Positions 9,830-17,069 of a stretch of DNA of 64,000 nt are shown piece by piece. A program made the translations under genes and the position numbers. The stretch comes from an uncultured Gammaproteobacteria bacterium (GTDB lineage: Bacteria; Patescibacteriota; Patescibacteriia; Patescibacteriales; UBA12465), in NCBI GenBank assembly GCA_964435515.1, contig CAYSZD010000001.1, positions 4,026 through 68,025 of the forward strand, read 5' to 3'. The notes below the pieces were generated by a model. It saw only the letters and a list, made by a program, of their open reading frames with translations. It was not told the origin of the DNA and searched no databases. How positions within the stretch are numbered: position 1 is the stretch's first letter; each line of letters starts with the position of its first letter.

Positions 9830-11032
9830 ATGGCAGAGGTAAAACCAGAGATAGAAACTTTTGCAAAAATAAAGGTTGTTGGTGTGGGCGGTGGTGGCGG
9901 TAGCGCTATTAACCGTATGATTGATAATGGCATTAGAGGTGTAGAATTTGTAGCAATTAACACCGATATTCAAGCTTTACATTTTAATAAAGCAGGCGAA
10001 AAAATCCATATTGGTAAAACTGTGACTAGAGGGCTAGGAGCGGGCATGAATCCGGATTTGGGTAAAGGAGCAGCTGAGGAATCTCAGAATGAAATCAGAG
10101 AGGCTTTAAAAGGTTGTGATATGGTATTTGTAACTTGTGGATTAGGCGGTGGAACTGGTTCAGGAGCTTCGCCAATTGTAGCTCAAATTGCTCGTGATTT
10201 AGGCGCTTTAACCGTTGCTGTTGTTACTAAGCCTTTTATTTTTGAAGGTGGACAACGCAAGAACATTGCTGATCGTGCTTTTGCTGATTTAGCTGATAAA
10301 GTGGACACTATTATTACTATTTCTAATGATAAATTACTTCAAGTGATTGATAAACGAACCTCTCTTTTAGAGGCTTTTCAAATTGCAGATGATGTCTTAC
10401 GTCAAGGCGTACAAGGTATTGCAGAAATTATTACAGTTCCAGGCGTAATTAATGCTGACTTTGCTGATGTAAAGGCGGTTATGGCTAATGCTGGCTCGGC
10501 CTTAATGGGTATTGGGCAAGCTAATGGTGAAAACAAGGCTATTGAAGCAGCTAAAGCGGCAATTAACTCTAATCTGCTTGATATGTCTATTGATGGTGCC
10601 CGTGGTATCGTCTTTACCATTACTGGTGGTCCAGACTTAAGCATGAATGAGGTTAGCGATGCTGCTAAAGTTATTACTTCAGCCGCTGATGAAGATGCTA
10701 AGATTATCTTTGGTGCTGTAATTGATGAAAAGATGAAGGATCAAATTAAAATTACCGTAGTTGCTACTGGTTTTGATGGTAAGGGTAAGAGTGGATTAAA
10801 AACTGAGTCTAAGAGTTATACTCCTAATCCTTTTATAGAAAGTGAAAAAGAAAAAGAAAATTCAAGTACTTCTCCATGGGGGGACAAAAAGATAAAAACA
10901 CCAGCTATTAAAAATATTCCTTTAAAACCATTAGTTGAAAAGAAGTTAGAGAAGAAGATAGAAGATGATGATGACATTGACGAAGAGGATGATTTAAGTG
11001 TCCCGGCCTTTATTAGGAAGAAGATGATGTAG
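9830..11032 (+). CDS. ftsZ: Cell division GTPase FtsZ
   Basis: Tubulin signature [18 protein letters not shown]-terminal [14 protein letters not shown], and a conserved C-terminal peptide [12 protein letters not shown]. Confidence 0.97.
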
Positions 11033-11060
11033 TATTGATTAAAATAATTTATAAATATTA

Positions 11061-11088
11061 AAAAATAGAGTTAAATACTCTATTTTTT
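11061..11088 (+). terminator. Intrinsic terminator after ftsZ
   Basis: ATAGAGT/ACTCTAT stem with a TAAAT loop, followed by TTTTT. Confidence 0.65.
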
Positions 11089-11179
11089 GTTTCTCCTTTC
11101 TCTTTTTTGTTATGAACTTATCCACAGCTTTGAATTAATATTAAAAAAAGTATTATTTTTTTCTAAATATTGGCTGATT

Positions 11180-11208
11180 TTGACCCCTCTTTTTTATTCT
11201 GCTATAAT
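11180..11208 (+). promoter_or_regulatory. Sigma70-type promoter of the nrdR-nrdD-nrdG operon
   Basis: TTGACC (11180-11185), 17-nt spacer, TATAAT (11203-11208) preceded by TGC. Confidence 0.55.
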
Positions 11209-11216
11209 GAAGCTAA

Positions 11217-11264
11217 GCACAATATTTAGTGGTTAGTTGACAAAAACTCCACAAAATATAGCAT
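11217..11264 (+). promoter_or_regulatory. Tandem NrdR boxes
   Basis: GCACAATATTTAGTGG (11217-11232) and CCACAAAATATAGCAT (11249-11264). By hand count they match the known 16-bp NrdR palindrome (acaCwAtATaTwGtgt) at 13 and 12 positions. Starts are 32 bp apart and the boxes lie just downstream of the -10. Confidence 0.6.
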
Positions 11265-11277
11265 TAATCTAATTTTT

Positions 11278-11745
11278 ATGAAATGCCCTGTTTGCTATTA
11301 TGTAGATACTAAAGTAATAGATTCTAGGGTGGCGCCTGATGGCCTTTCTATTCGCCGCCGCCGTGAATGTTTAAAGTGTGCCTTTCGTTTTTCTACTTAT
11401 GAAGAGATTGAAATCTTAGACTTAATGATTGTAAAGCGTGATGGTAGAAGAGAATCATATAGCCGTGAAAAATTAATAAGTGGATTAAAAAAATCATTAG
11501 AAAAAAGACCAGTCACTGAGGATAGTTTCAAACAAATTATTCATGGTATTGAAAGAGATTTACAAAAATTAAGAAAAAATGAAGTTACCTCTTTGCAAAT
11601 TGGACAGATTGTAATGAAACACTTAAAGAAAACAGATCCGGTTGCTTATATTCGTTATGCTTCAGTTTATGAATCTTTTAAAGATGCTAATGAATTTAGA
11701 AGAGAGCTCAACAAGCTTATTAAAGTAAAGAAGGGGGAAAAATAA
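11278..11745 (+). CDS. nrdR: Transcriptional repressor NrdR
   Basis: MKCPVCYYVDTKVIDSR...CLKC zinc ribbon plus an ATP-cone, 155 aa. Confidence 0.93.
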   Translation: MKCPVCYYVDTKVIDSRVAPDGLSIRRRRECLKCAFRFSTYEEIEILDLMIVKRDGRRESYSREKLISGLKKSLEKRPVTEDSFKQIIHGIERDLQKLRKNEVTSLQIGQIVMKHLKKTDPVAYIRYASVYESFKDANEFRRELNKLIKVKKGEK

Positions 11746-11835
11746 ATTAACATACTAAATCGATGGCGCAATTTAAGAGTGAAAAGATAGAGGAAGTCTT
11801 TTAAATCTTTAATTTCGCGATCGTTCACTAAAACC

Positions 11836-13887
11836 ATGTCAGAAACAATTAGCCAAATCCGGAAAAGGTCCGGAGACATTCTCGATTTTAGTCCAGAAAA
11901 AATAAAGACTGCTATCTATAAAGCCGCTTTATCTGCTGGTATTGATGATGAAAAATTAGCTCAGACTTTAACTGATGGGGCGGTAAAAAAAATAAATGCT
12001 AAGTTTCATAAAAATAGTATACCAGCGGTTGAAGAAATACAGGATATAGTTGAGGAAGTTTTAATTGAAAATAGGCAAATCAAAACAGCCAAGAATTATA
12101 TTCTTTATAGAGATCAGAGAAGACAACTTCGAGAATTAAATAAGGCGACTTCAGATGAAAAGTTAATGGAAGATTATTTAGGTAGAGCTGATTGGCGTTT
12201 GAAAGAGAATAGTAATATGAGTTTTTCTGTTCAAGGTTTAAATAATTACATTGCTTCAGCTATTTCTGCTCGTTATTGGTTAAATAAAATGTATCCAGCT
12301 AATATTCGGGAAGCTCATGTAAATGGTGATTTACATATCCATGATTTAGGTCTATTAGCTCCATATTGTTGCGGTTGGGATTTAAAAGATTTGTTAATTA
12401 AAGGTTTTGGGGGTGTTTCAGAAAAGATTCAGAGTAAAGCTCCTAAGCATTTTCGTAGCGCTTTAGGTCAGGTTGTTAATTTCTTTTATACAATGCAGGG
12501 AGAAGCGGCCGGCGCACAAGCATTTGCCAACTTTGATACCTATTTAGCTCCTTTTGTTAGATACGATAAATTAACATATAAAGAAGTTAAACAGGGATTA
12601 CAGGAGTTTATGTTTAATTTGAATGTTCCCACTAGGGTTGGTTTTCAGACTCCTTTTACTAATATCACCATGGATGTTACGCCTTCTAAATTAGTTGGCG
12701 AAGAAAATATTATTATTGGTGGTGAAATTAAATCCGAAAAGTATAAAGATTTTCAAGAAGAGATGGACATGATTAACAAAGCCTTCGCAGAAGTAATGAT
12801 CGAAGGTGATGCTACTGGCAGAATGTTTGGTTTTCCTATTCCTACTTATACTATTGATAAGAATTTTGATTGGGATAGAGAGTCTTTAGAGCCAATGTGG
12901 GAGATGACTGCTAAATATGGCATTCCATATTTTTCTAACTTTGTTAATTCGGATATGGACAGAGATGATGCTCGTTCAATGTGCTGTCGTTTACGTTTAG
13001 ATAATAGAGAGCTAAGAAAAAGAGGCGGTGGTTTATTTGGCGCCAATCCTTTAACGGGAAGTTTGGGCGTAGTTACTATTAATTTACCTCGCATTGGTTA
13101 CCTTTCTAAAACTAAAGAAGAATTTTTAGAAAGAATCTATAAATTAATGGATTTAGCTAAAGAAAGTTTAGAAATTAAAAGGAAAGTAATTGAAAAATTT
13201 TCTGAAGGTGGTTTATATCCTTATTCTAAACATTATCTAGCGGATATTAAAGCTCGTTTTGGTACTTATTGGCAAAATCATTTTAATACTATTGGTATTA
13301 ATGGCATGAATGAAGCGTTACTTAATTTTATAGGTAAAGATTTAACTAGTTCAGAGGGACATGTTCTTGCACTTGAGATAATGGATGCTATGAGGGAAAA
13401 ATTAATGGATTATCAAAACGAAACAAATAATTTATATAATTTGGAAGCTACTCCTGGAGAAGGATGTACTTATAGATTTGCTAAGAAAGATTTAGAAACC
13501 TATCCAGATATGATTTTTGCTAATACAGAAGATGCTAAACAGGGAATTCCTCCATATTATACTAATTCAACACATTTACATGTTAATTTTTCAGATGATA
13601 TTTTTGCTGCCTTAGATTTACAAGATGATTTACAAATTAAGTATACTGGCGGCACTGTTTTACATGGTTATTTAGGTGAAAGATTGACCGATGGCAACGC
13701 TGCTAAAAAATTAGCTCGTAAAATTATTGAAAATTATCGTTTACCCTATTTTACCATTACCCCTACTTTTTCAATTTGTCCTAAACACGGATATTTAGCC
13801 GGTGAACATAAATATTGTCCTAAATGTGATGAAGAAATAGGTTATAATAGCGAAGAGATGCAGTCTGAGCGTTGCTCAACAAATTAA
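11836..13887 (+). CDS. nrdD: Anaerobic ribonucleoside-triphosphate reductase, large fragment lacking the glycyl-radical domain
   Basis: N-terminal ATP-cone, class III RNR motifs (SMCCRLRLD, NLEATPGEG) and a C-terminal CPKHG...CPKC zinc site. The ORF stops (TAA 13885-13887) before any RVxGY glycyl-radical motif. Confidence 0.9.
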   Translation: MSETISQIRKRSGDILDFSPEKIKTAIYKAALSAGIDDEKLAQTLTDGAVKKINAKFHKNSIPAVEEIQDIVEEVLIENRQIKTAKNYILYRDQRRQLRELNKATSDEKLMEDYLGRADWRLKENSNMSFSVQGLNNYIASAISARYWLNKMYPANIREAHVNGDLHIHDLGLLAPYCCGWDLKDLLIKGFGGVSEKIQSKAPKHFRSALGQVVNFFYTMQGEAAGAQAFANFDTYLAPFVRYDKLTYKEVKQGLQEFMFNLNVPTRVGFQTPFTNITMDVTPSKLVGEENIIIGGEIKSEKYKDFQEEMDMINKAFAEVMIEGDATGRMFGFPIPTYTIDKNFDWDRESLEPMWEMTAKYGIPYFSNFVNSDMDRDDARSMCCRLRLDNRELRKRGGGLFGANPLTGSLGVVTINLPRIGYLSKTKEEFLERIYKLMDLAKESLEIKRKVIEKFSEGGLYPYSKHYLADIKARFGTYWQNHFNTIGINGMNEALLNFIGKDLTSSEGHVLALEIMDAMREKLMDYQNETNNLYNLEATPGEGCTYRFAKKDLETYPDMIFANTEDAKQGIPPYYTNSTHLHVNFSDDIFAALDLQDDLQIKYTGGTVLHGYLGERLTDGNAAKKLARKIIENYRLPYFTITPTFSICPKHGYLAGEHKYCPKCDEEIGYNSEEMQSERCSTN

Positions 13888-13941
13888 CTAATTTATTTAT
13901 TTATTTATGTTTCTTATGGTTTTTAGATAAATTGTCAATCT

Positions 13942-14109
13942 ATGCCAAAAGAATCAAGACAAAATATGAGCCCTATTACTACAAAGCGTCAAGAATGCAC
14001 CGTCTATAGTCGAGTTGTTGGTTGGTATACGCCAGTAAAAAACTATAATCCTGGTAAAACATCTGAATATAAAGATCGTAAAACCTTTAAGGTTGATTGC
14101 ACTAAATAA
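13942..14109 (+). CDS. nrdD: Stand-alone glycyl-radical domain of NrdD (55 aa, absent from the ORF track)
   Basis: My translation is MPKESRQNMSPITTKRQECTVYSRVVGWYTPVKNYNPGKTSEYKDRKTFKVDCTK. VYSRVVGWYTPVKNYNPGK matches the canonical NrdD C-terminal glycyl-radical loop. It is in the same reading frame as 11836..13887. Confidence 0.75.
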   Translation: MPKESRQNMSPITTKRQECTVYSRVVGWYTPVKNYNPGKTSEYKDRKTFKVDCTK

Positions 14110-14133
14110 TTAATTATTTGAGGGTCGTAGGGA

Positions 14134-14165
14134 AAAAGCCGTTCGTCCGACTCCCGGCGGCTTTT
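14134..14165 (+). other. GC-rich hairpin between the nrdD tail ORF and nrdG (terminator/attenuator-like)
   Basis: AAAAGCCG (14134-14141) pairs with CGGCTTTT (14158-14165). A second helix, GGGTCG (14122-14127) with CGACTCC (14148-14154), interleaves with it. Only a short T-run follows. Confidence 0.3.
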
Positions 14166-14179
14166 CATTCCTTATACCT

Positions 14180-14911
14180 ATGATTATTGGTGGTTTAGAA
14201 AAATTAACATTATTAGATTTTCCAGATAATTTGGCAGCTATTATCTTTACTCAGAATTGTAATTTTCGTTGCCATTATTGCTATAATCCCATGCTTGTCT
14301 GGCCACGCACAGAAATGCTGTCGCCGGATGGGAAGAATATAAAAGAAGATCATCCTTTAATAAAAGAGGAAGATCTTTTTTTGTTTTTAAAAGAAAGAAA
14401 AGGAAAAATAGATGGAGTAGTTATTAGCGGTGGTGAACCTACTCTTCATGCTGACTTGCCTCAATTTATTAAAAAAATTAAAGACTTAGGTTATTTAGTT
14501 AAGCTAGATACAAATGGTACTAATCCTTTAATGTTAGCTAATTTAATAGAAGCTAATTTAATTGATTATATTGCTATGGATATAAAAGCTTCACTTGAAA
14601 AATATGAAGAAACAGTTGCTGTAAAAGTAAATTTAGATAATTTGCAAAAAAGTGTTAAAATGATATTGTCTGGTCCTGTTGCCTATGAATTTAGGAGTAC
14701 CCTGGTACCAAAATTACATGGAGAGGAGGATATTAAAAGAATGGGGAAATTAATAAAAGGAGCTAGGCTATGGTATTTGCAAAAATTTAAGCCTGATGCT
14801 GATTTAATTAATCCTGAGTTTAAAAAACTTCCCACTTTTACGGATCAAGAGTTAAAAGATTTAGCGCTAATTGGGGCTAAATTTGTTCAGCGTTGTGAGG
14901 CTAGAATTTAA
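14180..14911 (+). CDS. nrdG: Anaerobic ribonucleotide reductase activating enzyme (radical SAM)
   Basis: CNFRCHYCYN CxxxCxxC radical-SAM cluster and a GGEPT motif. Located downstream of nrdD. Confidence 0.9.
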   Translation: MIIGGLEKLTLLDFPDNLAAIIFTQNCNFRCHYCYNPMLVWPRTEMLSPDGKNIKEDHPLIKEEDLFLFLKERKGKIDGVVISGGEPTLHADLPQFIKKIKDLGYLVKLDTNGTNPLMLANLIEANLIDYIAMDIKASLEKYEETVAVKVNLDNLQKSVKMILSGPVAYEFRSTLVPKLHGEEDIKRMGKLIKGARLWYLQKFKPDADLINPEFKKLPTFTDQELKDLALIGAKFVQRCEARI

Positions 14912-14921
14912 TTATAATAAT

Positions 14922-15224
14922 ATGAGCGAAATGCAAATTGTTGATCAAAGTTTAAATGATGAAAAAATACCTGATACTATTATTGAAGCAAAAGAAGGAG
15001 ATAGTGATTTAAATCAATTAATTAAAGAAAATTTGGCTCTTACTAGAGAAATTGCCATTATGGTTAGACATATTAATAGATATGTAGCCTGGCAAAGAAT
15101 TTTTGCTTGGGTTAAAGTGCTTTTTATTTTAATCCCCGTGATTGTTGGAGCTATATATTTACCACCATTACTGAATGACGCCTATAAACAATTATTATCA
15201 GCTTTAGGATCTAATATTCAATAG
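14922..15224 (+). CDS. Hypothetical small membrane protein
   Basis: The ATG at 14922 (MSEMQIV...) avoids the 41-nt overlap with nrdG that the tracked start at 14871 implies. One C-terminal TM helix (WVKVLFILIPVIVGAIYLPPLL). Confidence 0.5.
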   Translation: MSEMQIVDQSLNDEKIPDTIIEAKEGDSDLNQLIKENLALTREIAIMVRHINRYVAWQRIFAWVKVLFILIPVIVGAIYLPPLLNDAYKQLLSALGSNIQ

Positions 15225-15230
15225 TTATTT

Positions 15231-17069
15231 ATGAGTCAAGACATTGCTGTTTTTGCGCAAACAACTTTTCGCAATCAATTTAAAAAATTTGGTATTCGTA
15301 CAGATGATCGTCGTCGGCACATGTATTTGATTGGGAAAACAGGTATGGGTAAATCTACTATTCAAGAAAATATGATAGTAGGTGATATTAGAGCTGGATA
15401 TGGATTGGCGGTTGTTGATCCTCATGGAGATTTAGCAGAAAAAATAATTGAATATATTCCTGCTGATAGGATAAAAGACGTTGTATACTTTAATCCGGCT
15501 GATATGGATTATCCTATTGCTTTTAATGTTTTAGAACAAGTAGAACCTCATTTAAGACATTTAGTTGCGTCTGGGTTATTGGGAGTATTTCAAAAACTTT
15601 GGGCTGATTCCTGGGGACCTCGTTTAGAGTATATTTTACGTAATGCTATTTTAGCTATTTTAGATTTTCCAGGATCAACTATATTAGGGGTTGTGCGCAT
15701 GTTGTCTGATAAAGCCTATCGTAAAAGAGTGGTTGCTAATATTAAAGATCCGGTAGTAAAAGCTTTTTGGGAAAAAGAATTTGCTTCGTATGCTGATAAA
15801 TTTGCTTCAGAGGCGGTATCTCCAATTCAAAATAAAGTTGGTCAATTTCTTTCTAGTTCTTTGATGCGTAATATTATAGGTCAAGTGAAATCAACTATTG
15901 ATATTAGAAAAATAATGGATGAAGGAAAGATTTTGATTATGAATTTAAGTAAAGGAAGAATCGGTGAAGATAATTCGGCACTTTTAGGGGCAATGATGAT
16001 TACTAAAATTCAATTAGCAGCCATGAGTAGAGTTGATGTGCCTGAGAATGAACGTAAAGATTTTTTTCTATATATTGATGAATTTCAAAATTTCTCTACT
16101 GATAGCTTTGCCAATATTCTTTCTGAAGCTCGTAAATATCGTTTAAGTTTAATTTTAGCTCATCAATATATTGAACAACTTAGTGAAAAAGTAAAGCCAG
16201 CAGTATTTGGTAATGTGGGGACAATGGTTTCCTTTAGAGTTGGAGCTACTGATGCCGAGGAGCTAGCAAAAGAATTTGCTCCAGTCTTTACTGAAGAAGA
16301 TTTAGTAAATCTACCAAAATATGAAATGTATTTAAAGCTGATGATTGACGGTATTGCTTCTGCTCCATTTTCCGCTAAAGGTTTACCACCTTTAACAGAT
16401 GAAGAAAAAACACATAACCTTGATAAAGTTATTGCTTATTCAAGAGAAAAATATGCTACTTCACGAGTGCTTGTAGAGGAGAGAATTTTACGTTGGCATG
16501 AGGCTCAAGATGAACAACCTGTTAAAGCTCAAGTAGGAGCTAAAGCTAGTTATTCGCCCGATAAAACATTTACTAATAATCAAAAAAAAGAAGAAGTAAA
16601 AGAGATTATAAAAAATGATAAGTTTAGTTCGGGTCCGCTTAGACAAGACAAAGCAATATCTGCAGATAAAACAAATCATAATTCAAAATTACAACAAACA
16701 AAGCCAGTAAATAATGATATTGAAAAAGATTCTGCCTATACGGCTACTTGTGCTCGTTGTAATAAATTAACAAAGACGGTATTTATTCCTGATGGTGTAC
16801 GTCCAGTTTTTTGTAAAGAGTGTCTTGCTATTAAAAGGCAAGAGAAACAAAAAGAGGCAGAGGAGAGAAAGTTAAATAAGGAGAAAGAATTGCGACAAAT
16901 AGATATACAGAAAAAAACAGGGCCAAGTTTGTCTTTGTCGGATTTAAATAAAGTTAAGCCAGTAGATTTTAAAGGACGACCACAGAAAATCTCTTCATCG
17001 GATCATGTATCGCAGTCAGGAGACATGGAAGAAGACGAAATAATAGATTTTTCTAGAAAGGCTGAATAA
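15231..17069 (+). CDS. Soluble VirD4/TraD-like (T4SS coupling-protein-type) P-loop ATPase with C-terminal CxxC-x17-CxxC zinc ribbon
   Basis: Walker A GKTGMGKST and Walker B FFLYIDEFQNF, with LILAHQY. No N-terminal TM helix. The K/E-rich tail contains CARC-x17-CKEC (nt 16749-16823). Confidence 0.8.
   Translation: MSQDIAVFAQTTFRNQFKKFGIRTDDRRRHMYLIGKTGMGKSTIQENMIVGDIRAGYGLAVVDPHGDLAEKIIEYIPADRIKDVVYFNPADMDYPIAFNVLEQVEPHLRHLVASGLLGVFQKLWADSWGPRLEYILRNAILAILDFPGSTILGVVRMLSDKAYRKRVVANIKDPVVKAFWEKEFASYADKFASEAVSPIQNKVGQFLSSSLMRNIIGQVKSTIDIRKIMDEGKILIMNLSKGRIGEDNSALLGAMMITKIQLAAMSRVDVPENERKDFFLYIDEFQNFSTDSFANILSEARKYRLSLILAHQYIEQLSEKVKPAVFGNVGTMVSFRVGATDAEELAKEFAPVFTEEDLVNLPKYEMYLKLMIDGIASAPFSAKGLPPLTDEEKTHNLDKVIAYSREKYATSRVLVEERILRWHEAQDEQPVKAQVGAKASYSPDKTFTNNQKKEEVKEIIKNDKFSSGPLRQDKAISADKTNHNSKLQQTKPVNNDIEKDSAYTATCARCNKLTKTVFIPDGVRPVFCKECLAIKRQEKQKEAEERKLNKEKELRQIDIQKKTGPSLSLSDLNKVKPVDFKGRPQKISSSDHVSQSGDMEEDEIIDFSRKAE

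Follow-up and report, generated by a model that had tools for sequence, protein, structure and literature searches.

A split nrdD in Patescibacteria: the glycyl-radical segment of a class III ribonucleotide reductase lies in a small gene of its own

Glycyl radical enzymes (GREs) are described with the radical glycine on the catalytic chain. A textbook exception is found in a 64,000-nucleotide (nt) stretch of contig CAYSZD010000001.1 (assembly GCA_964435515.1), called the window below, where the gene of the class III ribonucleotide reductase (RNR) NrdD falls into two parts: a long cistron, nrdD-large, and a mini-gene whose product, a separate peptide of about 5 kDa (the mini), carries the presumed radical glycine. 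These are two separate, conserved and selected cistrons. It is very probable that they represent a conserved gene fission, which has turned the enzyme into a two-subunit class III RNR.

Two reading frames together make one NrdD

The gene order in the window is nrdR, nrdD-large, the small open reading frame (ORF) and nrdG. The large chain has an ATP-cone (E 2.7e-19), a catalytic barrel, a finger loop (ARSMCCRLRL) and a zinc ribbon, in which CPKH...CPKC at residues 648-664 is the putative zinc site; contiguous relatives also have this CxxH...CxxC arrangement. Its score against PRK08270 is 1026 bits, compared with a cutoff of 548. The chain ends ...CPKCDEEIGYNSEEMQSERCSTN-TAA, 19 residues past the zinc ribbon (the last residues before the TAA being ...FSICPKHGYLAGEHKYCPKCDEEIGYNSEEMQSERCSTN), and the glycyl-radical loop is not on it. 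Of the 562 positions of Pfam NRDD, 1-529 are found on the large ORF and 530-562 on the small ORF (E 1.5e-7), so that the two together make up one NrdD.

These profile matches bear out what the original prediction had read from the DNA letters: the 683-residue NrdD ORF stops at 13885-13887 without the radical-bearing C-terminus, and the 55-codon ORF at 13942-14109, which encodes MPKESRQNMSPITTKRQECTVYSRVVGWYTPVKNYNPGKTSEYKDRKTFKVDCTK, is the glycyl-radical segment. The small ORF carries ...CTVYSRVVGW...NPGK..EY.DRKTF; it matches only NRDD in Pfam, and all of its NCBIfam matches are NrdD models. Between the TAA at 13885 and the 55-codon ORF there are 54 nt, which hold an in-frame TAG at 13924, again as predicted. 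The flanking nrdR and nrdG are intact by their Pfam and TIGR02495 matches, and a 70-nt GC-rich gap separates the mini-gene from nrdG. The truncated nrdD is the sole nrdD copy within the window.

The split recurs in independent assemblies and related species

Seven independent Logan assemblies, which come from two groups of sequencing runs, encode exactly this 55-residue product, and the order nrdD-large, small ORF, nrdG is the same in all seven wherever the contig extends far enough. The seven loci fall into two strain types whose spacers differ by 4 nt, one ATTT unit: the sister strain (L001-L004 and L007) has (ATTT)3 in place of the (ATTT)4 at 13891-13906, which shifts the frame of the small ORF. 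All four substitutions between the strain types within the small ORF are synonymous.

When one genome per GTDB species was scanned, 377 of them proved to encode a relative; from this and each other scan, the best 80 loci were inspected. In all of these 80 genomes the radical loop lies in a stop-to-stop frame of only 47-82 codons. They belong to Candidatus Falkowbacteria and other Patescibacteria, as metagenome-assembled genomes (MAGs), complete chromosomes included. Across 84 analysed loci, the upstream nrdD invariably stops 8-25 residues beyond CPKCD, nrdG always lies 3' of the mini-gene, and the spacer from stop to ATG measures 18-193 nt (median 80). The radical motif is absent from all of the 120 closest large-subunit homologues, which have 78-91% identity and 673-703 residues.

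The possibility that the real gene is contiguous and was broken by an assembly or consensus error is therefore negligible. The AT-rich, low-complexity spacer with its (ATTT)n run would invite such an error, but the split is present in the seven assemblies, the 80 species genomes and the 120 homologues alike, the window's spacer contains two stops, and the spacers of relatives reach 193 nt.

Selection on the mini-gene

A protein search with the 55-residue ORF gave 39 matches, all of them stand-alone proteins of 43-63 residues. The start methionine is at least 90% conserved among these 39 minis, followed in most by SP or AP and then by RQEC-VYSRVVGW; it corresponds to the second ATG in the window, at 13966 (MSPITT...). 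The eight codons 5' of this ATG are conserved only among the nearest relatives of the window. The column of the radical glycine is at least 90% conserved (one mini has tryptophan) and the flanking YSRVV and W are invariant. The median pairwise ratio of nonsynonymous to synonymous substitution rates (dN/dS) is 0.037 for the mini-ORF and 0.045 for the nrdD core, each over 42 codons and with saturated dS, which points to strong purifying selection on the mini-ORF.

A recently decayed nrdD, with the small ORF as its remnant, could be suspected because the large ORF stops before the catalytically essential glycine. The conserved split and the low dN/dS (0.037, at saturated dS) rule this out with hardly any doubt left: the ATG is conserved, the 80 species show no frameshifts in the tail ORF, an intact nrdG always adjoins, and the large subunit is 78-91% conserved. 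The original prediction had leaned against decay, and the dN/dS of about 0.04 for the mini, the same as for the catalytic core, agrees with that leaning. So does the comparison among relatives that it proposed, with 80 of 80 related genomes split, the small ORF under purifying selection and no sign of the frameshifted, degrading tail ORF that would have spoken for a pseudogene.

A cysteine eight residues before the radical glycine (C19 in the 55-residue numbering, 13996-13998) is nearly invariant in the minis and is present in many contiguous NrdDs too. Many large-subunit tails end in CxxC or CC (ERCSTC, ERCPNC, NPACC; L009, L011, L017, L023, L068, L070 and others). C19 and the tail cysteines could conceivably have a redox or metal role at the subunit interface. 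The 90% cluster of the mini also lists P0447, an unrelated 692-residue repeat protein that looks like a phage tail fibre; its membership is probably a clustering artefact.

The two cistrons are probably translated independently

Could the two frames still give a single polypeptide, through read-through, frameshifting, bypassing in the style of T4 gene 60, or RNA or protein splicing? In the window the ORFs share a frame, and the AAT before the stop TAA equals the AAT before ATG 13966, like a take-off and landing pair. Over the 84 loci, though, the offsets between large and mini frames are distributed 37/24/23 across the three classes, with 1-8 in-frame stops in between, and no structure is conserved in the 18-193-nt spacers. 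Only five of 78 distinct loci have matching take-off and landing codons, always the common AAT, and the length of the gap is not conserved. As for splicing, Rfam finds nothing; a group I or group II intron would need a far longer spacer, and a split intein longer flanks. In a Bacillota operon described below (L176), nrdG lies between the two pieces and the mini has a Shine-Dalgarno site of its own. The variable length and frame of the spacer, its multiple stops and the conserved ATG argue for independent initiation, and a recoded or spliced product is very improbable.

The shared frame, to which the original prediction attached meaning, is a coincidence: a polymorphism of one ATTT unit, by which the sister strain is shorter, is enough to move the relative frame, and all three offsets occur over the 84 loci. 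Of the four readings offered at that stage, the two-piece NrdD has held up, while recoding, a small insertion and a fresh pseudogene have not.

Break point and additions to both chains

Aligned with the T. maritima NrdD (4COI), the large ORF extends up to residue 609 and the mini profile covers 616-644, with SRVVGW of the mini on the radical loop YMRIVGY. The chain is thus interrupted in the short stretch that links the zinc site to the buried glycine loop. For comparison, 119 contiguous relatives from this subfamily (fragments of Desulfobacterales and related MAGs) were examined; the junction motif was found in 115 of them, always with exactly five residues from CxxC to VYSR. Deletion of 13873-13995 (123 nt), proposed earlier as restoring a canonical junction, would not do so: it would leave 17 linker residues.

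The split form has additions on both sides of the break. The large chain gains a semi-conserved acidic tail, CPKCDEE[IML]G[YF]xE[TS]VEE[IV]RxANQ, and the mini about 11 residues at its N-terminus. The mean net charge is -4.4 for the large-subunit tail and +4.2 for the mini; by this calculation the two are complementary.

A possible origin of the tail as a degenerate copy of the radical loop, by tandem duplication, was considered and did not reach significance. The idea rests on a 15-position overlap in an NCBIfam profile and a few residues matched by eye. The echo between SERCST at the end of the large ORF and RQECTV in the small one, remarked on in the original prediction, is confined to one subclade of tails and has no significant homology behind it. 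MAFFT alignments of a large-plus-mini fusion with contiguous fragments or with minis put the radical domain in the wrong place, on the acidic tail or within the barrel, and were not used.

Split NrdD beyond the Patescibacteria

A profile of the minis searched against 1.84 billion representative proteins gave 4050 matches at E<=1e-3 and 272 at E<=1e-10. Among the best 150, 149 are proteins of 44-115 residues, all but two of which begin with methionine; the remaining one is a 236-residue fragment of a contiguous NrdD. Most of the 149 carry the canonical ...CEVYSRVVGYLRPV.QWN.GK..EF.DRKTF. Further split operons with the same break point were found at L088, where stop and start overlap as ATGA, and at L174, L175 and L176.

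The last of these, from a Bacillota MAG (GCA_051747745.1, 701-3692), has the permuted order nrdD-large, nrdG, mini. Its large subunit has 680 residues and ends CPKCAAEDQAEEEKETVGA, and its mini-gene is preceded by a perfect AGGAGG 7 nt before a GTG start. This large subunit shares a 90% cluster with P0450, which is WP_114457116.1, named 'MULTISPECIES: ribonucleoside triphosphate reductase [unclassified Halanaerobium]'. Since this RefSeq clustermate is likewise truncated, the split NrdD probably exists in cultured organisms, namely Halanaerobium. Over a 380-residue core, large subunits of Halanaerobium and Falkowbacteria are 66-68% identical and Halanaerobium and contiguous forms 59-69%; on these values the fission may have arisen once or several times.

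Orphan minis in phages

Minis without an nrdD nearby were seen in phage-like neighbourhoods among the contexts of the profile matches (L091-L093). IMG/VR was scanned with a profile of diverse minis (best 80 loci, L094-L173): 63 of these loci are small ORFs of 40-133 residues, plus one fragment at a contig edge. The orphan viral small ORFs have neither an NrdD core match nor an NrdG within 3 kb, and NrdG occurs in these loci only beside full-length viral nrdD genes. Many viral proteins of 90-130 residues have a complete CHDC...C[DE]xC ribbon plus the glycine loop, that is, the whole radical domain. Pfam and PHROGs place the viral minis only at the C-terminus of the NrdD family and have no dedicated family for them. 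One orphan mini (P0187) lies directly 3' of phage tail genes, and a tblastn search with a phage-context mini against GenBank phages gave only two weak matches. By analogy with T4 Y06I and pyruvate formate-lyase (PFL), the orphan viral minis are candidate phage 'spare parts' for the anaerobic RNR of the host.

Some contiguous viral NrdDs of about 1000 residues (L107, L108, L152, L155, L161 and L170) show a gap in alignment with the window's protein. The gap is similar to that of some Falkowbacteria nrdD-large proteins of 1005-1081 residues (L060 162-3398, L065 420-3437, L077 192-3437; those of L060 and L077 are incomplete at the locus edge), which carry one or two intein-like insertions: at RVGFQ/TPFTN, and within the finger loop as ARSM-[CPLAG...THN]-CRLRL.

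Expression signals

In many relatives the spacer between the two cistrons holds a promoter-like element. TTGnnn-N17-TATAAT is present in 50 of 79 related spacers, its -35 hexamer sometimes taking in the stop codon of the large ORF. With both strands counted, the 6.3 kb of spacers contain 39 copies of the strict form, TTGTA[AT]-N17-TATAAT, and the remaining 1.04 Mb of locus sequence contains none. Where a near-strict pattern was scored (37 loci), the distance from the end of the -10 element to the ATG falls into two ranges, 9-21 nt and 44-88 nt. The leaders in the 44-88-nt range usually hold an inverted repeat specific to the lineage, such as CTATCTAG...CTAGATAG in L033 (also L014, L016, L019, L022, L028-L030, L035, L036, L043, L047-L049 and others), which may be a regulatory hairpin.

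The best match of the consensus scan, TTGACC-N17-TATAAT 5' of nrdR, is the probable, still putative promoter of the operon. Just 3' of it lie two palindromes, about 32 nt apart from centre to centre, which, read by eye, resemble the NrdR-box consensus. Their position 5' of nrdR suggests that nrdR, nrdD-large, the mini-gene and nrdG form an autoregulated operon. No comparable NrdR-like boxes were seen in the spacer between nrdD and the mini-gene.

The mini-gene of the window has no Shine-Dalgarno sequence on its 5' side, which means little, since only six of the 47 long ORFs (>=150 residues) in the window have a motif of this kind. ORF starts in the window typically follow A/T-rich sequence ending ...tt/atATG, and the organism seems to initiate translation largely without Shine-Dalgarno pairing.

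The gap between the mini-gene and nrdG is filled by a GC-rich element (14113-14175 in the window; 66-72 nt; 47% GC against 33% locally) that is kept in the window's subclade. For 13 aligned sequences (L008-L012, L017, L018, L020, L023, L025, L026, L050 and L057), RNAalifold predicts a hairpin of 10 pairs, five of them with compensatory changes; its GGG...CCC is invariant and its loop spans about 20 nt, and if GCCG and CGGC paired instead, a pseudoknot would form. Other subclades have different GC-rich spacers in this gap, and in most relatives nrdG starts only 6-18 nt past the mini-gene. The hairpin could be an attenuator that sets the ratio of mini to NrdG, or a small regulatory RNA. Rfam has no match at E<=1 over 11000-15300, the hairpin included.

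Features of the locus

Table 1. Genes and sequence elements of the split nrdD locus (window coordinates)
Feature	Position	Strand	Basis or remark
Promoter-like site TTGACC-N17-TATAAT, 5' of nrdR	11180..11208	+	Consensus scan, 11/12
Two NrdR-box-like palindromes, AGCACAATATTTAGTGG and CCACAAAATATAGCAT	11217..11264	+	Read by eye
nrdR (155 residues)	11278..11745	+	Pfam Zn_ribbon_NrdR E 8.7e-20; ATP-cone E 1.7e-19
nrdD-large (683 residues)	11836..13887	+	Pfam NRDD E 5.8e-184; NCBIfam PRK08270 1026 bits
Zinc-ribbon coding segment	13777..13827	+	C648-P-K-H651 ... C661-P-K-C664
Acidic 19-residue C-terminal tail of nrdD-large, DEEIGYNSEEMQSERCSTN	13828..13884	+	Not in contiguous NrdDs
Inter-cistronic spacer	13888..13965	+	(ATTT)4 at 13891-13906; TAG at 13924
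Mini-gene, glycyl-radical peptide of 47 residues, MSPITTKRQECTVYSRVVGWYTPVKNYNPGKTSEYKDRKTFKVDCTK	13966..14109	+	Pfam NRDD positions 530-562
GGT codon of the presumed radical glycine, SRVVGW motif	14020..14022	+	Read from sequence
GC-rich hairpin between mini-gene and nrdG, followed by TTTT	14122..14164	+	RNAalifold; terminator-like match at 14143-14160
nrdG (243 residues), radical-SAM activase	14180..14911	+	TIGR02495 NrdG2 E 1.6e-58; Pfam Radical_SAM

A model for the two-subunit enzyme

How could the two products work together? NrdG, a radical-SAM protein, would abstract the C-alpha hydrogen of the glycine in the mini peptide. The activated peptide would then dock non-covalently in the barrel, at the site that the C-terminal loop occupies in a contiguous NrdD, and so set the radical beside the finger-loop cysteines C383/C384. 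We infer this activation and docking from homology, from the mobility of the NrdD radical domain and from the precedent of GrcA acting in trans. The radical domain of the P. copri NrdD is highly mobile, and largely rigid-body movement is expected by the authors (PMC11226230); GrcA demonstrates that a GRE radical domain can function in trans, in this case for PFL (PMC13450708). The mini would be obligatory, because the large subunit is genetically truncated. In the window both cistrons are probably co-transcribed from the NrdR-controlled promoter 5' of nrdR, and in many relatives the mini-gene would additionally have its own near-consensus promoter.

Several points weigh against the two-subunit reading or limit it. 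The assembly of the two products in trans and the activation of the peptide are deduced from the sequences. An AlphaFold2 model of a large-plus-mini fusion was uninformative, with a mean predicted local distance difference test score (pLDDT) of 59 and less than 30 over the mini, because the input alignment, only 50 close large-subunit homologues, was too shallow. The search for a second nrdD covers the 64,000 nt of the window. The start codon is ambiguous in the window's lineage, where the upstream ATG at 13942 would yield 55 residues and the ATG at 13966 yields 47. The consensus scan gave no good promoter match in the window's own spacer or in those of its nearest relatives; in the window the mini is probably co-transcribed with nrdD. 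Finally, an advantage of the mini as a 'replaceable part' is conjectural, and a neutral fission that became fixed fits equally well.

That last alternative, a real but selectively neutral fission whose pieces reassemble with no benefit for repair or regulation, is quite possible, at somewhat less than even chances. No measurement here demands an advantage, the spacer of the window is without a promoter of its own, and split catalytic subunits are reportedly functional in other RNRs (NrdA of phage Aeh1, with mobE). Against neutrality stand the same break point in Patescibacteria, a Bacillota MAG and other metagenomic lineages, the promoter-like element in 50 of 79 spacers, the conserved acidic tail facing a basic mini, and the orphan phage copies. 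Together, the shared break point, promoter element, charges and phage orphans suggest that the arrangement is exploited, although none of them is decisive.

What would the two-subunit enzyme gain by it? A repair or regulatory advantage is plausible from the sequence features, in that the promoter-like element, the complementary charges and the phage orphans point there: a 5-kDa peptide is far cheaper to replace than a 78-kDa enzyme. By analogy with GrcA, and as speculation, the separate peptide may be a part that is cheaply exchanged once oxygen has damaged it. A bolder version is tentative and rather doubtful: the peptide of about 47 residues would be a consumable radical cartridge, resupplied from its own promoter, and phages would use the same interface on the RNR of the host. 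Oxygen cleavage at the glycyl radical would destroy only the 5-kDa peptide, and the large subunit would accept a replacement, while the phage orphans, with zinc ribbon and glycine loop, would re-arm or hijack the host's anaerobic RNR. If true, this would bring the 'spare part' principle of GrcA into ribonucleotide reduction, and the radical site of a GRE would become a subunit under regulation of its own.

Significance and comparison with known systems

The split NrdD is a familiar enzyme with an undescribed and widespread subunit architecture, likely to be present in culturable Halanaerobium. It concerns the essential anaerobic RNR of a large clade, which includes Falkowbacteria and other Patescibacteria, and is also found in other lineages. 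It raises the questions whether a free glycyl-radical peptide can be activated before its insertion, and whether a separable loop helps anaerobes with small genomes to come through pulses of oxygen at low cost. The split operon, if present in the Halanaerobium strains that underlie WP_114457116.1, could be studied in culture. In metabolic reconstructions of candidate phyla a truncated nrdD could pass for a pseudogene. Databases give the two pieces one and the same name, 'ribonucleoside triphosphate reductase', with no remark on the split. The orphan copies in phages may point to an auxiliary role that has gone unrecognised.

With the canonical class III NrdD/NrdG systems of E. coli, phage T4, T. 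maritima (4COI/4U3E) and P. copri (8P23), the split form shares the ATP-cone, the ten-stranded barrel, the finger-loop cysteines, the zinc ribbon, the radical motif, the adjacent NrdG activase and control by NrdR. In canonical NrdD the radical glycine is on the barrel chain, whereas the chain of the split form breaks off after the zinc ribbon and before the glycine loop, and the acidic tail of about 19 residues and the new mini N-terminus of about 11 are extra.

An RNR catalytic subunit encoded in two pieces has a parallel in phage Aeh1, whose class I nrdA is said to be interrupted by the mobE homing endonuclease (Friedrich et al., 2007), the pieces reportedly reassembling. Unlike that class I case, which is known from one phage, the split nrdD has no endonuclease in the spacer, its break removes the radical-bearing element, and it is conserved across hundreds of species. 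Other GREs, such as benzylsuccinate synthase (alpha-beta-gamma) and 4-hydroxyphenylacetate decarboxylase, combine a catalytic subunit with small accessory polypeptides. In these multi-subunit enzymes it is the large subunit that keeps the radical glycine, and iron-sulphur clusters or structural roles fall to the small ones; in the split NrdD the small polypeptide carries this glycine.

A June 2026 review of GREs knows stand-alone radical-domain 'spare parts' only for formate lyases (PMC13450708). Neither a split NrdD nor a spare part of the NrdD type is described in the searchable full-text literature, which does not prove novelty and agrees with the original prediction, where no NrdD counterpart of GrcA/YfiD was known. 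The closest likeness is to GrcA/YfiD of E. coli and Y06I of T4: the mini, too, is a small stand-alone protein with a glycyl-radical loop (a 47-55-residue ORF), and it would have to act in trans on a large GRE body without a working loop (PMC13450708). The differences are of descent and of role. GrcA is homologous to the C-terminus of PFL, whereas the mini matches only Pfam NRDD; and GrcA is a reserve for a full-length enzyme that oxygen has cleaved, whereas the large subunit of the split NrdD is truncated in the gene itself. The orphan phage minis are a closer analogue of Y06I than is the mini of the split operon.

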